Assembly: GCA_015062525.1 (NCBI GenBank)
Contig: SUUM01000004.1
Span: 24,547 to 88,546 of the forward strand
DNA length: 64,000 nt
Reading direction: 5' to 3'
From: Alphaproteobacteria bacterium
Lineage (GTDB): Bacteria; Pseudomonadota; Alphaproteobacteria; Rs-D84
Part shown: positions 9,627 through 24,834 of the stretch, piece by piece
Layout: every line of letters starts with the position of its first letter
Numbering within the stretch: the stretch's first letter is position 1
Position numbers and translations under genes: made by a program
Notes under the pieces: generated by a model
Seen by the model: the letters and a program-made list of their open reading frames with translations, nothing else
Told to the model about the DNA's origin: nothing
Database searches by the model: none

Positions 9627-12263
9627 TTAATCTACTCCCTCTGGCAAATTCACGTATACACCGCTACCATCACCATCATCAACACAATAACGGAAGCCAT
9701 CACTCCCTTTTTGCACCGTCATCCCAAGTGCACAGACCTGATTAAAATCTGAAAACGAACGTGCTGTACACCAATTATTCTCGGTCGGTTTTTTTGTGAA
9801 ATCAGACCACAACTCTACCCCACTTGTAGTACAACTAGCATCCGCAGCCGCAACCTGTAAACCCTGGTCATCTATCATCGTTGCCGGCAACACCGCAACA
9901 CACTTGGACGATTTTCCCCACTTACTGCGACGTGCACCATTTTCCCAACACAAACACGCACCCCACGACTGGGTCGCAACCCCCAAACTATAATCACGCG
10001 GGCACATATCTTCACCATTTCCAATTCCATATAACGAAACCAACGTATTAGAACCATGTTCACGTATGTCATACCGGGAATCAGTAAAATTCGCCAAACA
10101 CAAATTATTCTCATTATACGCGCCATCATCAAAGAACTGATACTCCATAAATCGTCCCTGCAGATTCGCGCACTGGATGGACAGCATCGATATAATCTGA
10201 TTATAAACCTCGGTCGCGACACCGGTCGGGCGCATATTCCTATGTTCCAGCGCATAGCGATCATTCTCGTCTGCATTTTCAGCCACAAGCCCATATCTGA
10301 CATAGGCGGTATTATTATTATCCGTATTCACGCCACCCCTTGGGACTGCAAACGAAAATCCCACACTATTTTGCAGAACATTCTCTACCTCTGCCACATC
10401 AAACCCACCAAAGGCTTGCTTCATCATACTTTCACTACTGCATGCAGTAATATTTGCCAATTGTTTCGCGCATTCGGATTTAAGAACTTCTACTCTTTGC
10501 CCATTTTCATCATACTTAACCTCATACAAAGCAAACCAATCTGGCGCACTTCCTGAATTTGCTGGGAACAAACCGCTGTACGGGTAATAGAAATTTTCAT
10601 AATTATTCCCACCATATTTATCAAAGCATTGCTTTACAACCGCACGACACGCCGTCAATGTATCTGTGTTTTTAATATTATCCACATATTGTGCAATAAT
10701 ATTACCATCAAACATATTATTACATGACTCCACATAGTCCGAACACATTTGACTATTCAGCACAACTTTATCTGGCTGCAACACAATACTACTATCCCCC
10801 GCCAATTCCGCCATAGCTGTGGTTATTGCCTTATTTCCATTCATATAACAATTGGCCACATAATCCAAGCATCCTTGTTTAATTTCCGAAACCTTTGCTT
10901 TCTGGGCATAATAAATAGACAACATTGCCTTGTCTAAATATTCGGCCCAAACGGTATCTGCGTTTTCCACACACTTATCCAGCGCATCTTGCGCAAATTT
11001 TTTAACCCTGTTTTCAAAATTTTGGACGAATGCCCGATTAGACGAATTTTTAGATAATTTTTGATCAACCGCTTCAACCCCATCGCTGAACACCAGCATT
11101 TGTTCCAATTTATAGAAATCTTCCACTCCAACAATCGGCTTACCGGTTGAAATATCGATATATTGTCCATTATCTAAACACTTATGATAATCTGCACCGC
11201 ACACCTGTTCGCTTAATATCGCCGCTTCCACTTCGTTAATACAGGTTGTAATATCAGACGAATTATGTTTCTGACGATTTTCCACACGCGCCAAATCCAG
11301 CATTGCGCTACCCTCGCGCACAGCGGCCTTCATCTGCTTTTGTGTTTTTTCAACTGCCGCCTGCACTGTATTACAGTCTTGTTCAATTGCCATTAAATAC
11401 GCTGTAATCGCCCGTTGCAACGACGCATCGTTACAATCCGCCCGCACAGCATCACGACATTGGGGATAAACGGCACTATACAGCGCATTACCATTATACG
11501 CGGCGATTGCCTGTCCAGCGTCCACCATCCCAAATGCATTAACCGTATCAAAAGAAATATTAACACTGTTTAAATCTGAATATTTACCACCCACAGATGT
11601 ATCTTCGCCACGAATAGAATTCATAATTGCCTGCAACAACGCCTTGGATGCAGAATTATCATCAGTCAGGGCATTTTCGCCTTCGGTCTGGGTACGCATT
11701 GCCGTTGCCTGAGCGGCGGTCATCCCCACCACATCCAAAGATTCTGTGAACACAGTCAACTTTTCCCCCGCCTGTTCCAGAACGCCACGCACTTCGTCCA
11801 ATTCAAACACACGGTCATTACACGAACAACGGCGATAATTATCATTTTTCAGCATACAAAATTGGTCCATACACGAAAAGTATGTATTTTTACATTGTTC
11901 ATATTCCGCACCGGTCCGCGTAGATGACATTGCCCCCACCGCATCATTTCCCGCGCGCGCAACAATCGGCGTCATATTGCGTGAATTACTGATATTTTTT
12001 GCCACCCGTGTGGTCAAAGAACGAGTGTTTATTCCATTACGTGAAACCGTTGCCCGACTTTTACTAGAATCTGTTGTTGCCCGCGCTGATAAAACAGATG
12101 TACGCGGTTCGCTGCGTTTTACAACCGTGGCGGTTCGTGCCTGGGTCTGGGCCACACTTTTATCTAATTTTGCACGCGAAACCGCCGTTCCATCACGAAC
12201 GGCCGCATTTGCGACACCGACGCAAACCAGCAGATTTGCAAGAAAAACCAGAACTCTCTTCAT
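9627..12263 (-). CDS. large secreted Cys-rich protein, paralog A (unknown function)
   Basis: Signal peptide MKRVLVFLANLLVCVGVANA; T/R/A/S-rich low-complexity segment then a Cys-rich domain homologous to 27766..30762; ORF extends to 12323 but start 12263 gives the signal peptide. Confidence 0.6.
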   Translation of the reverse strand: MKRVLVFLANLLVCVGVANAAVRDGTAVSRAKLDKSVAQTQARTATVVKRSEPRTSVLSARATTDSSKSRATVSRNGINTRSLTTRVAKNISNSRNMTPIVARAGNDAVGAMSSTRTGAEYEQCKNTYFSCMDQFCMLKNDNYRRCSCNDRVFELDEVRGVLEQAGEKLTVFTESLDVVGMTAAQATAMRTQTEGENALTDDNSASKALLQAIMNSIRGEDTSVGGKYSDLNSVNISFDTVNAFGMVDAGQAIAAYNGNALYSAVYPQCRDAVRADCNDASLQRAITAYLMAIEQDCNTVQAAVEKTQKQMKAAVREGSAMLDLARVENRQKHNSSDITTCINEVEAAILSEQVCGADYHKCLDNGQYIDISTGKPIVGVEDFYKLEQMLVFSDGVEAVDQKLSKNSSNRAFVQNFENRVKKFAQDALDKCVENADTVWAEYLDKAMLSIYYAQKAKVSEIKQGCLDYVANCYMNGNKAITTAMAELAGDSSIVLQPDKVVLNSQMCSDYVESCNNMFDGNIIAQYVDNIKNTDTLTACRAVVKQCFDKYGGNNYENFYYPYSGLFPANSGSAPDWFALYEVKYDENGQRVEVLKSECAKQLANITACSSESMMKQAFGGFDVAEVENVLQNSVGFSFAVPRGGVNTDNNNTAYVRYGLVAENADENDRYALEHRNMRPTGVATEVYNQIISMLSIQCANLQGRFMEYQFFDDGAYNENNLCLANFTDSRYDIREHGSNTLVSLYGIGNGEDMCPRDYSLGVATQSWGACLCWENGARRSKWGKSSKCVAVLPATMIDDQGLQVAAADASCTTSGVELWSDFTKKPTENNWCTARSFSDFNQVCALGMTVQKGSDGFRYCVDDGDGSGVYVNLPEGVD

Positions 12264-12382
12264 CTCTGATGAAAAGTCTAGCAAATTTGCCAATTCCCGT
12301 GCAAGCGAATAATACCAAGACATAAAAAACCTATTTTTCTTGTTGCAAAGATTTGAAAATTAATATATTATACCTGTCGCCT

Positions 12383-12892: not shown

Positions 12893-13010
12893 CGCCATCC
12901 GGCGGGATTTTTTAGTGGCTAGTGTAAGTGCATCCGTCTGTGCACAGCACAGCCGAGATAAAAAGAGCAAAGAGCAATTAATGTATCTTTACCGCGATGA
13001 ATAAAAGTTT
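12893..13010. repeat. repeat element arm (inverted partner of 13437..13530)
   Basis: agtgtaagtgcatccgtctgtgcacagcacagccgagataaaaagagcaaagagcaattaatgtatctttac is the reverse complement of 13441..13510. Confidence 0.75.
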
Positions 13011-13128
13011 AACAGAGATATTAATTTTTAGAAATTAAGCACCATTACCTGCCCCCGTCGGGCCCCGAAAAATTCAGATGAATTTTTTGGGTGACTTTGT
13101 GGGGCGGGACAGTTTTACTTGACCCGCC

Positions 13129-13314
13129 ATGCGGGGCTTTAGTAAAACTTGGGTGGGGGCAAATATGACAAAACATTCAACACAAGTTATTCGCGCAAAA
13201 CAATTACGCAAAAATATGTCAGACGCAGAAAGCAAATTCTGGTATCGAATTAATCGCAATCAACTAGGTGTAAAATTTCGCCGCAATAACAAAGCCACTT
13301 ACTTCGATAAATAA
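13129..13314 (+). pseudogene. truncated DUF559-like (endonuclease-domain) gene fragment
   Basis: 61 aa matching the N-terminal DUF559 pattern (LRKNMSDAESKFWYRINRNQLGVKFRR) but lacking the C-terminal half; ORF ends at the repeat element at 13312. Confidence 0.4.
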
Positions 13315-13530
13315 AAGTTTAGTGGTTAGTGCAAGTGGTTAGTGGTTAGTGGATGTGTGCGGCGAATGCCGCACATTATAGTGCCATCACTTACCACTTA
13401 CACTAACCACTTATCACTAAGATAAACTTTTATTTAGCGCAGTAAAGATACATTAATTGCTCTTTTTATCTCGGCTGTGCTGTGCACAGACGGATGCACT
13501 TACACTAATCACTAAAAAATCCCCGCTTGG
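13312..13530. repeat. palindromic repeat element (ttagtggttagtg family) plus inverted partner arm
   Basis: Near-identical to 6714..6846; the second half is the reverse complement of 12893..12960; ends in an A-tract/hairpin/T-tract terminator-like module also seen at 23843..23907. Confidence 0.8.
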
Positions 13531-13671
13531 TTGCACCCGCGCAAACGAATGTTTGTGTGGGTGGAATCCAGGGTGTTTTTTTACAAAAAAAAATGTGTGC
13601 TGACACATGTACAAAAACAACAATTTTTTCATACAAAAAACACAAGTAATATCAATATATTAATCCGTGTA

Positions 13672-13699
13672 AAAACTATAAAACAAACCAACGTTTGTT
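13672..13699. promoter_or_regulatory. hix/gix-like 28-bp palindromic site, left copy: TATAAAACAAACC-AA-CGTTTGTTTTATA
   Basis: 13+2+13 architecture with an AA central dinucleotide; A-rich...CC | GG...T-rich half-sites reminiscent of Hin hix sites; the partner site at 13764 has the inverted core. Confidence 0.45.
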
Positions 13700-13763
13700 T
13701 TATACCATTTTGTCAAACAAAAAAATAGCAGATTTCCGCCATTTTTGCAAGCGCAAATCAACT
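13700..13763 (-). promoter_or_regulatory. putative invertible promoter segment: TTGCAA-N17-TGC-TATTTT on the minus strand
   Basis: -35 TTGCAA, 17-bp spacer and extended -10 TGcTATTTT read leftward, away from the Gly-rich operon, in the present orientation. Confidence 0.35.
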
Positions 13764-13791
13764 ATAAAACAAACGTTGGTTTGTTTTATAG
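13764..13791. promoter_or_regulatory. hix/gix-like 28-bp palindromic site, right copy, inverted core: TATAAAACAAACG-TT-GGTTTGTTTTATA
   Basis: Exact reverse complement of the left copy, so the two sites form inverted repeats. Confidence 0.45.
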
Positions 13792-13808
13792 TCTAAATGG
13801 GGGGATTT

Positions 13809-14816
13809 ATGCCGGCAATACATGTTAATAATGTTGATATTCAGGTGTATGAACAGCAGTATACATCACCCACCCTGCACGTGCAAAATACCGACGGAAA
13901 AATATACCATGCAATTGTTATACCCCAGGGGGGCGAATTTCTTGATGCCTCGGAAAAACTGGTATATTCCGCGGATTCAATCAACGAATGCGAACCGGTC
14001 ACATTGGATGCGGGAATGTATCGCGTGGAATTGCGTGGTGGCGCGGGTGGAAAACAATCGCGGTGTAATGTCGGTTTGGGTACAATAAACCCGGTTGCCA
14101 ATACGGTATCCCAGGTTTTTAAATTACCCACACAAACAACCGTATATGCATTTCGTGGTGGCGATGGTAATGACAGTCCCACGGTGACGGTTCATCAGAT
14201 TCCGGGTGGTGGCGCATCGGGTGTGGACAGCATGCTGGTGGTGGGTGACCATGCAATTGTTGGTATCGGCGCACCATCGTCACAGTGTTTTAATTTAGCT
14301 ATTACATCATACCCATACCCCCATGGGGGCACAACAACACGCTTTCAGTGCCAATCCACACCATCTGGAACATATGCCATAGAAAACATTGAAATAGGAC
14401 AAGCTGTAGGTGGTACTTATTTTGGCTGTGGTGGGGGTGGCGGGGGTGCCCCAAATGGTATTGGTGGTACATCGGTTTCATACACAAACGTTAAAATAAC
14501 CGCCGGCACCAATGCGACATCTGATGGGGGTGGGAATGGTGGTGATGCGGAAAATTTAACGGGGGATTCACAAACAAAAAATCTGGGGATTGGTGGCATT
14601 GGTGGCAAAAACGTATATTGGCAATGTGCCGGTCACACGGCGGTATCGTATGGTGGGGGCGGCGGCGGCGCCACATGCATGTTGTACAACCCAAATACGT
14701 GCGCCAGCACAACAAATGCATGGTGTTATTCCGATTGCGCCGATGGTGGCGACGGTGCATCGGGCAGTACCGGCAAATCAGACACCAGTTACGTTAAAAT
14801 TTATAAAATAGGATAA
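13809..14816 (+). CDS. Gly-rich protein, paralog 1 (fibre-like, unknown function)
   Basis: GGGGGG RBS then ATG at 13809; Gly-rich blocks (GGGGGGAPNGIGG, GGGNGGD); ~35% identical to the next gene; no signal peptide. Confidence 0.6.
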   Translation: MPAIHVNNVDIQVYEQQYTSPTLHVQNTDGKIYHAIVIPQGGEFLDASEKLVYSADSINECEPVTLDAGMYRVELRGGAGGKQSRCNVGLGTINPVANTVSQVFKLPTQTTVYAFRGGDGNDSPTVTVHQIPGGGASGVDSMLVVGDHAIVGIGAPSSQCFNLAITSYPYPHGGTTTRFQCQSTPSGTYAIENIEIGQAVGGTYFGCGGGGGGAPNGIGGTSVSYTNVKITAGTNATSDGGGNGGDAENLTGDSQTKNLGIGGIGGKNVYWQCAGHTAVSYGGGGGGATCMLYNPNTCASTTNAWCYSDCADGGDGASGSTGKSDTSYVKIYKIG

Positions 14817-14821
14817 TCATA

Positions 14822-15793
14822 ATGTTATTACCGTTGGCATTATTATCGGCATTATATTTTAAAACATCGGATGGTAATATTTATCATACCATTGATAAAA
14901 TACCGGATGGCATGTGCATACTAAACAATAACGGCGCGGAATTGGTGTACGAAGCAAGCAATTTTAACACCTGTAACGAAATTGTATTACAACCCGGATG
15001 TTATCGTGCGGAACTACGTGGCGGAATTGGCTTACAAAATGAATATTGTTTATCCATTGCCGAACAGGATTTTACCCCCACCATATCCGCAATATTCAGT
15101 ATAAACGAACCAACCACGGTATATGTATTCCGTGGTGGCGATGGTAACCCAGGTGGGGTAAATGTTATAAATAACAGAACTGGTGCATTCGGTGGCGGTG
15201 CATCGGGCGTGGACAGCATATTGGTTGTTGGCGACCGTGTATGGCGTGCATCGGGTGGCGCGGGTAAAACGTGTGTAGCCACAAGATATCATCTGAATGG
15301 CGCTACCAGCTCTAGCTCAGTTTCTGTTGGAAATGGTATTGGTGGGGGCGCAACGTCAAAAATCAGCACTCAATCTCGTTTATATTTACAACAAATATCA
15401 GCACTACGCTTCGAGGTATACGGCATTGGCGGTGGTGGTGGCGCGTCACCAAATGGCGCCGGCGGTACAGATTGGCAATTCCACAGTGCTTTTATCAATG
15501 CGGATGAATATGTAAATGCCGGCACCAATGGCACAGATGAACGTGGTGGTAACGGTGGTGATATTTATTCGTGTAATAACCCATCCTGTACATCCATGGT
15601 ATCCGCCACGGGGGGCACGGGTGGCGCAACCGTTACATATGAATGTGGTGGCCAAACCGCAAAATCATATGGTGGTGGTGGCGGTGGCGGGGCATACAAT
15701 GGAAGCAACTCAACCGCCGCCAACGGCGGTAATGGCGGTTCCGGTTCAACCGGCACCAGCGACACATCATTTGTACGAATTTATCGCATATAA
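14822..15793 (+). CDS. Gly-rich protein, paralog 2
   Basis: AGGA RBS; shares VY.FRGGDGN, GGGASGVDS.LVVGD and TG.SDTS.V.IY.I motifs with paralog 1; tandem arrangement. Confidence 0.6.
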   Translation: MLLPLALLSALYFKTSDGNIYHTIDKIPDGMCILNNNGAELVYEASNFNTCNEIVLQPGCYRAELRGGIGLQNEYCLSIAEQDFTPTISAIFSINEPTTVYVFRGGDGNPGGVNVINNRTGAFGGGASGVDSILVVGDRVWRASGGAGKTCVATRYHLNGATSSSSVSVGNGIGGGATSKISTQSRLYLQQISALRFEVYGIGGGGGASPNGAGGTDWQFHSAFINADEYVNAGTNGTDERGGNGGDIYSCNNPSCTSMVSATGGTGGATVTYECGGQTAKSYGGGGGGGAYNGSNSTAANGGNGGSGSTGTSDTSFVRIYRI

Positions 15794-15809: not shown

Positions 15810-16412
15810 TTATTCCCACCCCTGACGTTTTACAAACTGTGATACAGTCGCGGGATAAACCCCCATTATCTTGGATATTTGATATTTACTGACCCCCATA
15901 TCCAATAAATCTTTCACCAGTTTTGTATTTCTGGCCAGGCCCAATTTCCTTGAACGTGTCGCCATCGGTCGCCCCAGTCTTTTGCCCGTGGCACGAATAC
16001 TGTCCAACGACGCCTTGGTTCGTTGCGATATCAGGTTGCGTTCAATCTCGGCCGATAAACCAAATGCAAATGCCATTACCTTGGACTGAATATCATTTCC
16101 CAAACGATAACTTTCCTTGATGGTCCAAACCTGACAATTTTTATTCATACAAAATTCCAAAATTTTCATAATCTCTAGTACCGAACGCCCCAGACGCGAT
16201 ATCTCGGCGGCAATTAAAATATCACCATCATGCAACCCATTTAACAATAACCATAAACGTCTTTTCGATAATGGTTCACGCGATGATATTTTTTCTTGTA
16301 TCCACCGTTCGACCTTTATATGATTTTGCCTTGAAAATTTATTTATCTCGAAATATTGATGTTCGCACGTTTGTTTATTCGATGACACACGAATATAGCC
16401 GATAATCGCCAT
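15810..16412 (-). CDS. serine recombinase, Hin/Gin/Cin-type DNA invertase (resolvase family)
   Basis: 200 aa; N-terminal catalytic motif IGYIRVSS with the Ser nucleophile; C-terminal HTH (GVSKYQISKIMGVYPATVSQFVKRQG); size typical of small invertases. Confidence 0.8.
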   Translation of the reverse strand: MAIIGYIRVSSNKQTCEHQYFEINKFSRQNHIKVERWIQEKISSREPLSKRRLWLLLNGLHDGDILIAAEISRLGRSVLEIMKILEFCMNKNCQVWTIKESYRLGNDIQSKVMAFAFGLSAEIERNLISQRTKASLDSIRATGKRLGRPMATRSRKLGLARNTKLVKDLLDMGVSKYQISKIMGVYPATVSQFVKRQGWE

Positions 16413-16547
16413 TTTTTGAACCTTTTGATTTAAAATTTATTTTTCAATTTCTTTTACATAATACAAAAGTACAAATTCAATGAATTTTCTGCTTCCATTA
16501 AATATGAAAATTTATTATTATTAACACAGGAAGGAAGAGACAAAGGC

Positions 16548-16883
16548 ATGAGAAAAATTTCATATATCGTTTTTGCGTGTGTATTGTATATCCCATTTGC
16601 AAATGCAAAAATTGCAAGTCAAGAGTATGTTACAACTCATACTAGTAATCACACAAACCCGCATCAGGTCACCAAGGCTCAAGTTGGCCTTGGGAATGTA
16701 CCAAACGTTGACACAACAAATGCGGCTAATATTACTACGGGCACACTTGGGTATGACCGCCTGCCGGTTGGAACGACAGCAAACACCGTTGCCGCCGGAA
16801 ACGATGCCAGGTTTTACGCAATACCAACCGCACAACCAACCGTCAACGCCCCAGAAGGCATGGCGTTGGTATGGTTCAATTAA
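16548..16883 (+). CDS. small secreted protein with a phage tail-fibre-like motif (KAQVGLGNVPNVDT)
   Basis: Strong RBS GGAAGGAAGAG; signal-peptide-like N-terminus; motif resembles the conserved VGLGNVDNTSD block of coliphage tail fibres (from memory, not searched). Confidence 0.45.
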   Translation: MRKISYIVFACVLYIPFANAKIASQEYVTTHTSNHTNPHQVTKAQVGLGNVPNVDTTNAANITTGTLGYDRLPVGTTANTVAAGNDARFYAIPTAQPTVNAPEGMALVWFN

Positions 16884-23928: not shown

Positions 23929-24834
23929 CTATATCAATCCAAAGGACGTGATATAGTTGAAAGATATTCCCATGATAAAGTTGCTGCCATAGACATCAAC
24001 CCCACGGGCGCGGGCGCGACGATACTGCACATATGGCCCCATCGTCAAATCACCCCACAAATTCGTATCCAAGCGCAAAACCGCACTTAAATCGCGTTCC
24101 AGGTCCGTTGGAACAAACTGCGAATAACTTAGATATTCACGATAGTACCCATTGGACGATAATTTTACCCCTTCGCGAATTTGATATTCCAAACGCCAAC
24201 CAAGTTCCGCCGCCAATTTGCTGGTCTTTTCATTGGCAAAGGTAAAATCATATTCATACACACCCGTCAAATACAGGCTTTTTACAATTGCATTGTCAAA
24301 CAGCGAAATACCGGCACTGCCACGAACGACCTGCTGGCGCGGTGTATCATCTGCGGTTTTAAATTCTGTATCATATGCCGCACGAACCGTCGGACCAAAT
24401 TTAAATCCATAAGATTCCCAACACGCATAAGACAAATCGCTACTTAACAAAATATCATCGGCGTTTTCACTAACCGTTTCTGGCTCATCATATGGTTGCA
24501 ACTTGGTTTCACCATATTCCATAAACAGTGAATTATCCCACTGAAAACGATTTTTGCTGTATTCCAGCGCCGTATCAAAAACGCCCTTAACAAATGTCTG
24601 ACTGTCTGCCTTTAACGCAGAAATTGGCGATTTTTGATATTCAGCCGCATTTTTCACATCAGTACGCGACCATTCCAACCCAATTCGACGCACCGCCAAT
24701 GTCAGTTTAGCAGAATCCACCGCCGGCGCATCATCCGCCAATGCCATTCCCGGCAACATAAATAACAAAGCAACCCACGATATTTTTCTCAAATCAACAC
24801 CCCATTTATTTCCAAATTCGCAATACACCATCAT
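23929..24834 (-). CDS. hypothetical secreted/envelope protein
   Basis: ORF 23929..24885; signal-peptide-like KISWVALLFMLPGMALA; start uncertain. Confidence 0.45.
   Translation of the reverse strand: MMVYCEFGNKWGVDLRKISWVALLFMLPGMALADDAPAVDSAKLTLAVRRIGLEWSRTDVKNAAEYQKSPISALKADSQTFVKGVFDTALEYSKNRFQWDNSLFMEYGETKLQPYDEPETVSENADDILLSSDLSYACWESYGFKFGPTVRAAYDTEFKTADDTPRQQVVRGSAGISLFDNAIVKSLYLTGVYEYDFTFANEKTSKLAAELGWRLEYQIREGVKLSSNGYYREYLSYSQFVPTDLERDLSAVLRLDTNLWGDLTMGPYVQYRRARARGVDVYGSNFIMGISFNYITSFGLI

Follow-up and report, generated by a model that had tools for sequence, protein, structure and literature searches.

A candidate invertible promoter upstream of a glycine-rich protein operon in an uncultured alphaproteobacterium: probable multi-locus phase variation with an Mpi-like serine recombinase

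The 64,000-nucleotide stretch of DNA analysed here (positions 24,547 to 88,546 of contig SUUM01000004.1, assembly GCA_015062525.1, from an Alphaproteobacteria bacterium of the Rs-D84 lineage; hereafter the window, its first letter being position 1) contains, just upstream of a two-gene operon for glycine-rich proteins, two inverted 28-bp palindromes that bracket a 58-bp segment with a promoter, and a gene for a small serine recombinase is located 2 kb downstream of this arrangement. We read the element as one of several copies of an invertible promoter, located at different loci and all served by a single Mpi-like serine DNA invertase, a probable case of multi-locus phase variation, and our confidence in this reading is moderate because no flipped copy was found. 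In particular, we infer that the 58-bp segment flips, that the flipped state is the ON state, and that one enzyme serves all the loci. As in invertons, inverted repeats surround a short promoter-bearing segment beside an operon, and a site-specific recombinase gene is found nearby.

The two-site feature is real and non-random. The left site, TATAAAACAAAC-CAAC-GTTTGTTTTATA (13677..13704), has 12-nt palindromic arms and the central dinucleotide AA; the right site (13763..13790), with the centre GTTG and the central dinucleotide TT, is its exact reverse complement and stops 18 nt short of the ATG at 13809; the candidate invertible segment occupies the 58 bp between them (13705..13762; none of the three features is assigned a strand). 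Each site is a perfect 12+4+12 palindrome in which the centre (CAAC/GTTG) is the sole asymmetry, inverted between the copies, and the perfect inverted repeat as a whole covers 30 nt (13675-13704 and 13763-13792), with 58 nt separating the arms and the site centres 86 bp apart, about 8 helical turns. An earlier note on this DNA, made from its letters, had placed the left site at 13672-13699 (5 nt off) and the right site at 13764-13791 (1 nt off), with a 64-bp enclosed segment, which the repeat search reduces to 58 bp, and a centre spacing of about 92 bp, which measures 86 bp. Its statement that the two 28-bp sequences are exact reverse complements was borne out by a pattern search in the 64 kb, and of the 13+2+13 layout that it proposed the AA/TT core and the inverted orientation stand, while the innermost arm position is non-complementary, so that 12+4+12 is the proper description. 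With up to 3 mismatches allowed, the 28-mer occurs 2 times in the window, versus 0 expected (100 shuffles), and every one of the 4 exact occurrences of the 12-nt half-site in the window is inside the two sites. Beyond the window, a scan of a genome collection for TAAAACAAAC-N4-GTTTGTTTTA returned only 12 isolated palindromes, all from unrelated taxa, and not a single pair (no genome of the species with this site is part of the collection), a metagenome scan for the interior sequence gave no match, the source contig lying outside that collection, and a viral-contig scan for the site gave no match either.

The recombinase gene (15810..16412, minus strand, 200 aa) is convergent with the glycine-rich operon. 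Judged by its sequence, the product is a serine invertase-type enzyme, Mpi-like and not Hin/Gin proper, because by far its best family match is to NCBIfam NF009949, “master DNA invertase Mpi family serine-type recombinase” (E 3e-76; 255.6 bits, just below the curated cut-off of 272 bits), and extends over the full length (residues 3-197 aligned with positions 2-196 of a 203-position profile), versus a distant match to Gin (4m6f, 3uj3; E 9e-9 to 4e-8) that is no better than the matches to gamma-delta or Tn3 resolvase, with Gin, gamma-delta, Tn3, and Sin all at E 1e-8 to 1e-6. Of the Hin-family invertase announced for these coordinates by the earlier note, the open reading frame (ORF) of a serine recombinase thus stands, and the assignment to the Hin family gives way to Mpi. 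The resolvase domain (PF00239) is matched at E 7e-28 over residues 3-144 and C-terminal helix-turn-helix (HTH) models over residues 166-196; S10, part of the motif YIRVSS, corresponds in the alignment to the catalytic serine of Gin, a GRP linker is present, and the family-invariant residues are all kept (Y6, R8, S10, R45, R73/R76, the ISRLGRS motif, and E122/E124/R125). A scan of viral contigs for the recombinase yielded relatives at 41-44% identity only.

The type of site found in the window is a genuine crossover site of this recombinase's family, as the shared core adjoins recombinase genes in relatives and near-identical contigs are found inverted with the breakpoint at the site centre. 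A metagenome scan produced 71 loci with relatives of the recombinase (41-100% identity, 59-74% for nearly all of the full-length ones), several of the related contigs belonging to assemblies with names that suggest rumen or human-gut origin, and most of the loci with upstream DNA possess a site TTACACAAAC-CAAC-GTTTGTGTAA, with the core ACAAAC-CAAC-GTTTGT, approximately 195 bp upstream of the recombinase ATG. In its 16-nt core (ACAAACCAACGTTTGT), the window site is identical to this recombinase-adjacent site. A second conserved site, ...TTGATTTAATC-GTTC-TATTAAA..., is found in the relatives approximately 45 bp upstream of the same ATG. One example of natural inversion between the two is presented by loci L030 and L024, whose flanks are identical at 213/218 and 127/146 positions and whose 137-nt interiors, bounded by CAAC and GTTC, agree at 126/137 positions only as the reverse complement, versus 71/152 in the direct orientation, with the end-points inside the AACG/CGTT that both sites have in common, i.e., at the palindrome centre; serine recombinases make a 2-bp staggered cut at the site centre. 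More pairs with direct flanks and an inverted interior emerge from an all-versus-all BLAST of the upstream regions, including L056 with L057, L045, L051, and L032, L033 with L042, and L025 with L039, and overall one state is represented by about 28 loci of the relatives and the opposite state by about 12 (counts read by eye from the upstream sequences and the BLAST pairs, classification by regular expression being unreliable). The proposal that the palindromes are recombination sites of the neighbouring recombinase's family is therefore upheld, by the shared 16-nt core and by natural inversions that end at the site centre.

These observations bear on the possibility that the palindromes serve as paired operators, at which a dimeric DNA-binding protein, the recombinase or another HTH protein, would loop or occlude the promoter with no rearrangement at the locus. 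Perfect dyad-symmetric sites 86 bp apart on either side of a promoter would suit such a function, and so would the single orientation seen in the available contigs and the fact that the window recombinase is without the self-adjacent switch of its relatives. However, the 16-nt core is identical to the crossover points in relatives, the asymmetric centre is kept inverted in all copies of the element and in a distant lineage (discussed below), which an operator pair would not need, and the recombinase retains all of its catalytic residues, so we consider paired operators unlikely.

The self-adjacent switches of rumen metagenomes (L020-L077) resemble the window element in the site core, in the enzyme family (59-74% identity), and in short interiors (61-137 nt), and their neighbouring genes encode secreted or pilin-like proteins. 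Unlike the window element, they are positioned between the recombinase gene and a divergent gene for a secreted protein, directly upstream of the recombinase, their proximal site is of a different half-site type (TTGATTTAATC-GTTC-TATTAAA), and both orientations are seen. The recombinase gene of the window, unlike those of its relatives, has no family site upstream. It is divergent from a gene for a 111-aa secreted protein (16548-16883), an arrangement common to the relatives, and the 135-bp intergenic region (16413-16547) has lost both of the relatives' switch sites, with a remnant left that resembles a ...AAATTGAA... half-site. We conclude that the window's sites have moved from the upstream region of the recombinase to the glycine-rich operons. 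Short paired-site spacers are also present in relatives, of 61 nt (L060, with 18-nt arms), 93 nt (L064), and 108 nt (L053), which by our count correspond to about 84, 116, and 129 bp between centres. The sites of L048 and L060 contain AAACGTACGT, the window core being AAACCAACGT; the consensus of Mpi sites is ARACGTWCGT. One further contig, L065 (1769-1926, 6833-7372), contains three modules of two sites each, the site starts being 134-135 bp apart, upstream of genes with type IV pilin-like N-termini, two of the modules being arranged head-to-head with nested inverted repeats of 27 and 37 nt.

The earlier note described a single local switch, and here the result is different, as at least 4 identical modules are present in the genome. 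Each module is made up of a left flank, conserved in part, and two sites separated by 58 nt, and it ends 18 nt before an ATG; in the window, the flank, GTAATATCAAT...TTAA...AAAAC, occupies 13630..13676 (plus strand), and homology between the paralogous loci begins approximately 179 nt upstream of the ATG. By tracing homologues of the first glycine-rich protein (Gly1) to their contigs, the module was found at 4 loci of the window's species: the recombinase locus (the window and L018), downstream of RNase E/G (L090, L092), downstream of PriA (L091, L099, L102, L118), and downstream of MscS (L111), each time preceding a paralogous two-gene glycine-rich operon. Alongside these loci, at least 4 with identical site pairs, only one recombinase of this type was seen. 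Further copies of the site, for which the earlier note had proposed a genome-wide search, are absent from the 64-kb window and present elsewhere in the species. In the 9 contigs that span the module, both sites are free of differences (0/56 nt), versus 0-5/58 in the interior and 8-16/50 in the left flank, and the interior is 58 nt long in every copy. A fifth operon, beside rplS (L094-L098), has a fixed and unrelated upstream region, with homology beginning just past the position of the right site. About 200 nt upstream of that operon, its leader encodes alternative hairpins, CTCCTGAC...GTCAGGAG and then ...CCTCCTGACCGC...GCGGTTTTTT, which look like an attenuator or a terminator.

A small AT-rich unit with perfect 30-nt terminal inverted repeats and several copies in the genome is also what would be expected of a miniature inverted-repeat transposable element, in this case one of 118 bp inserted upstream of the operon. 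We regard this origin as extremely unlikely: a target-site duplication cannot be seen, both termini are themselves palindromes and match recombinase sites, the rest of the 64-kb window is free of copies, and each copy has the same context, partly conserved on the left and identical on the right, and because this context is constant in every copy, the module is best seen as part of a duplicated 2.2-kb cassette and not as an independent insertion.

The paralogous cassettes share more than 2 kb at 84-99% identity, and, to judge from allele distribution, the glycine-rich paralogues clearly recombine. One example is the identical Gly1 allele P0019, found in L090 at the locus of RNase E/G and in L091 at that of PriA. 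Another example is P0026, found at the PriA locus (L099) and at the recombinase locus (L100), where the first genes are the same and the second genes are different. One database member, P0032, is a Gly1/Gly2 hybrid. In addition, the right site contains the starts of six contigs, which come from five assemblies of related strains. Three MEGAHIT contigs, L093, L100 (=L002), and L103, have an identical start, 6 nt into the site (ACAAACGTTGG...), and three JGI contigs, L101, L104, and L105, start 14-18 nt further in. An origin of the starts at ACAAACGTTGG from points of paralogue divergence or from a simple flip bubble was considered and rejected, as by k-mer arithmetic neither predicts the observed start. 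It could be proposed from such data that the sites are genuine and are used mainly between loci, in large chromosomal inversions or in the exchange of glycine-rich cassettes, 58 bp being too short to flip. The identical alleles behind different flanks in different samples, the contig starts inside the right site, and the identity of every local orientation would all be in agreement with this. However, the allele swaps would be accounted for without any part played by the sites if they arose by homologous recombination, gene conversion (as in the P0032 hybrid), or chimeric assembly, some exchange points are located away from the site, since L099 and L100 share the first gene and differ in the second, and a paired-site geometry of 84-86 bp, conserved in two lineages, would be left purposeless. 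We view use mainly between loci as quite unlikely.

Within the candidate segment, a credible promoter of the sigma-70 type can be read from the sequence, TTGCAA (13750->13745)-N17-TGc-TATTTT (13727->13722), on the minus strand (13722..13750). As assembled, it faces away from the glycine-rich operon, toward the 3' ends of co-directional upstream genes. The sequence, the strand, and the direction away from the operon agree with what the earlier note had given for a “good” extended -10 promoter; the adjective itself does not fit the score against the consensus, which we return to below. The operon for tRNAs in the window has a promoter, TTGCAA-N17-TATTAT (12344-12372), that ends 10 nt before tRNA-Leu, and the two have the -35 TTGCAA and the 17-nt spacer in common, so that the hexamer pair of the switch promoter is typical of the organism. 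This tRNA-operon promoter is a useful local standard for promoters of the organism. Operons of relatives that have no switch (L109/L110, L114-L117) possess instead sigma-70-like promoters in forward orientation, at a similar distance. A search upstream of the left site for a fixed promoter in the forward direction gave no convincing candidate.

The middle of the segment is occupied by a GC-rich quasi-dyad, GCAGATTTCCGCC (13728..13740, no strand assigned), whose centre is at position 30.0 of the interior versus an interior midpoint of 29.5, and which is also within a weak, nearly symmetric, terminator-like hairpin listed on the minus strand. A centred and nearly symmetric element is expected for something that works in both orientations, and it may be a loop apex or an accessory-factor site; an accessory protein could bind there, or the element could act as a hinge at the apex. 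The idea of an orientation-dependent terminator in the interior was dropped, the hairpin being weak and nearly symmetric. Signals at the level of RNA were also considered, with the 30-nt repeat forming a long stem, or each site a hairpin, in the operon leader, as a signal for processing, stability, or termination. The transcript region does fold to -52 kcal/mol (z-score -7.9), each site alone can form a hairpin of 12-14 base pairs, and there is the weak terminator-like hairpin in the interior. However, strong folding is automatic for any inverted repeat, and the -52 kcal/mol is explained by it; the stems of all copies contain Watson-Crick pairs exclusively, free of G-U pairs and mismatches, neither site is followed by a U-tract, no convincing candidate was found for a fixed upstream promoter that would transcribe the stem, and the link with the crossover sites of the recombinase family is left unexplained. 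With this balance, a function in RNA is very unlikely. Rfam recognized only tRNAs in the window.

The same architecture is present in a distant lineage (L106-L108 and L112-L113, two loci), in which Gly1 is about 45% identical and a perfect inverted repeat of 21 nt, with another sequence (CCGAAAAAAAACGGTGGTTTA; CCGAAAAAAAAC-GGTG-GTTTA), is located in front of the operon. The spacer of 70 nt places the centres 84 bp apart, the interior contains a promoter, TTGACT-N18-TATTAT, on the strand facing away from the operon, and a GC-rich quasi-dyad (CCGGAAATCCGG, in L106) is centred at 35.5, which is also the interior midpoint. The asymmetric site centres are kept in inverted orientation in all copies of the window's module and in the distant lineage.

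For the invertible promoter that we favor, the following sequence of events is proposed. Each 28-bp palindrome would bind a recombinase dimer, and the two sites would synapse through a tight U-turn of the 58-bp interior, aligned in parallel, with the non-palindromic central AA/TT setting the inverted orientation. Four strands would be cut at the centre, one half of the tetramer would rotate by 180 degrees, and the ends would be rejoined, leaving the interior flipped. In the assembled state, the promoter would fire away from the operon (OFF), and inversion would place it approximately 55-60 nt before the start codon of the two-gene operon (ON); the predicted junctions of the inverted state are GTGTAAAAAC + site + GTTGATTTGCGC and CAAAATGG + site + GTCTAAATGG. 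As the module precedes at least 3 other paralogous operons, the recombinase would act in trans on several loci, with combinatorial phase variation as the result.

A number of observations weigh against such a switch. The opposite orientation is absent from all 9 spanning contigs (4 loci, at least 6 samples), in which all promoters face away, so that the heterogeneity of orientation anticipated by the earlier note was not seen in assembled contigs, and the two loci of the distant lineage are both in the “away” state as well. The promoter scores 8/12 versus the sigma-70 consensus and, because of this score, is not listed by a consensus scan. In another strain, the -10 at the PriA locus (L118) is mutated to CATTCT, with both 28-bp sites perfect. 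The family score of the recombinase is short of the curated cut-off, as already mentioned. Finally, the 86-bp loop is shorter than any inversion documented among relatives (141 bp), and we estimate the cost of bending at about 13 kT. The very short spacing had been raised as a caveat by the earlier note; it is not unique, as 84 bp is found in other lineages, and a 58-bp U-turn would have less curvature than nucleosomal DNA and, with an architectural protein, would be plausible. The interior of L118 (3899-3956) has 5 substitutions in total, including those that convert TATTTT to CATTCT, and one of the five repairs a mismatch in the central hairpin.

A more specific version of the proposal, which we put forward tentatively, as a possibility and not as an expectation, is that of a minimal, enhancer-free switch, in which the Mpi-like enzyme would flip an 86-bp loop near the limit of DNA bending, helped by the GC-rich dyad at the apex (through an architectural protein or as a hinge), and in which the same enzyme and sites would also shuffle adhesin-like glycine-rich cassettes among at least 4 loci. 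If the 58-bp segment does flip, few programmed inversions by serine recombinases would be shorter, and the element would be a compact natural part for studying the synaptic tetramer under extreme DNA looping without a Fis enhancer. It would also mean that the “master invertase” strategy reaches uncultured gut and rumen Alphaproteobacteria and bacterial ALK-like glycine-rich proteins, and it would point to the latter as exposed variable determinants, possibly targets of phage or host. Very short elements with palindromic sites are a class that inverton-detection pipelines may miss.

Among known systems, the Mpi (FinA/Ssr2) system of Bacteroides fragilis, whose family is the best match of the window enzyme, pairs one small serine recombinase with several dispersed short promoter segments with inverted repeats, upstream of variable (presumed surface) gene clusters, as is proposed for the window's system, and there too some copies of the regulated family are without the switch. 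In contrast, the host in our case does not belong to Bacteroidales, being an uncultured alphaproteobacterium of the rumen whose genes have Shine-Dalgarno sites and sigma-70 promoters, the targets are operons for glycine-rich proteins resembling the glycine-rich domain (GRD) of ALK and not capsule loci, the sites are complete, perfect palindromes, and the interior, whose inversion we infer, is 58 bp, versus segments of roughly 170-230 bp for Mpi. These features, the alphaproteobacterial host, the glycine-rich operon targets, the fully palindromic sites, and the very short interior, are what is novel, the logic being already known from Mpi. In B. fragilis, Mpi alone inverts 13 regions, including seven polysaccharide promoters (PMC4747536), and its deletion locks the promoters (PMC10403206); the Bacteroides repeats were described as hin-like by Patrick 2003, as cited in PMC3090145.

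The Hin/hix, Gin/gix, and Cin/cix systems share with the window element serine catalysis, a recombinase gene that adjoins the target, and a pair of sites in inverted orientation, in each of which two A-rich half-sites surround an AA/TT core of 2 bp, the non-palindromic core enforcing inversion. The centre of the window site, ...AAACC-AA-CG..., resembles the hixL centre AAAACC-AA-GG (hixL as quoted in the earlier note). The two-site layout is thus that of Hin, Gin, Cin, and Pin, while a close sequence relationship with these enzymes is absent, the window enzyme being distant (E about 1e-8 for Gin). Moreover, Hin, Gin, and Cin act on one locus each, whereas the window system is proposed to act on several. 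The 58-bp interior cannot hold a recombinational enhancer inside, an enhancer outside it being possible, and Alphaproteobacteria are generally not known to possess Fis. Hin flips about 1000 bp, for which it requires HU and an enhancer, bound by Fis, at a distance of about 100 bp from one of the hix sites (PMC3798978). Similar parallels can be drawn with fimS/FimB-FimE and other tyrosine-recombinase invertons, in which a promoter on a short invertible segment controls an ON/OFF surface structure and the population is biased toward OFF; these differ in relying on a tyrosine recombinase, a Holliday junction, and IHF/Lrp, and in having much shorter inverted repeats. The fimS segment is 314 bp in length.

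As to the operon that the switch would control, both ORFs of the glycine-rich operon that the earlier note mentioned are present. The first (13809..14816, plus strand) encodes a glycine-rich protein of 335 aa and has a ribosome-binding site, GGGGGG, at 13799-13804, and the second (14822..15793, plus strand) encodes a paralogue of 323 aa with a weak match to PF21722. This weak match aside, searches of both proteins against Pfam and NCBIfam returned nothing significant, and neither protein has a recognisable signal peptide. The AlphaFold model of the first protein (predicted local distance difference test, pLDDT, 85; predicted template-modelling score, pTM, 0.80) matches only the glycine-rich (TG) domains of the ALK/LTK receptors in the PDB (18 matches at E <=1e-3, probability about 1, template-modelling (TM) scores about 0.26), in agreement with which PF12810 is recorded on two of the homologues. 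The proteins belong to a large, multi-copy family of gut and rumen Alphaproteobacteria (P0001-P0120). The names carried by homologues of the genes next to the switch assign the organism to MAGs of uncultured “Alphaproteobacteria bacterium”. The multi-copy, variable, and switch-controlled nature of these proteins suggests that they are exposed determinants.

Two other features of the window deserve mention. Between tRNA-Val and the switch module, an inverted repeat of about 128 nt (12904-13031 and 13403-13523; 67 nt at 97% and 63 nt at 81% complementarity) surrounds about 370 bp, with a fragment of a DUF559-like ORF (13129-13314) and a nested palindrome (13299-13445) of AGTGGTTAGTG repeats inside, and may represent a decayed mobile or invertible element. 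Further upstream, positions 9627-12323 (minus strand) encode an 898-aa cysteine-rich protein with an N-terminal hydrophobic segment and, weak DUF5039 aside, no significant Pfam match.

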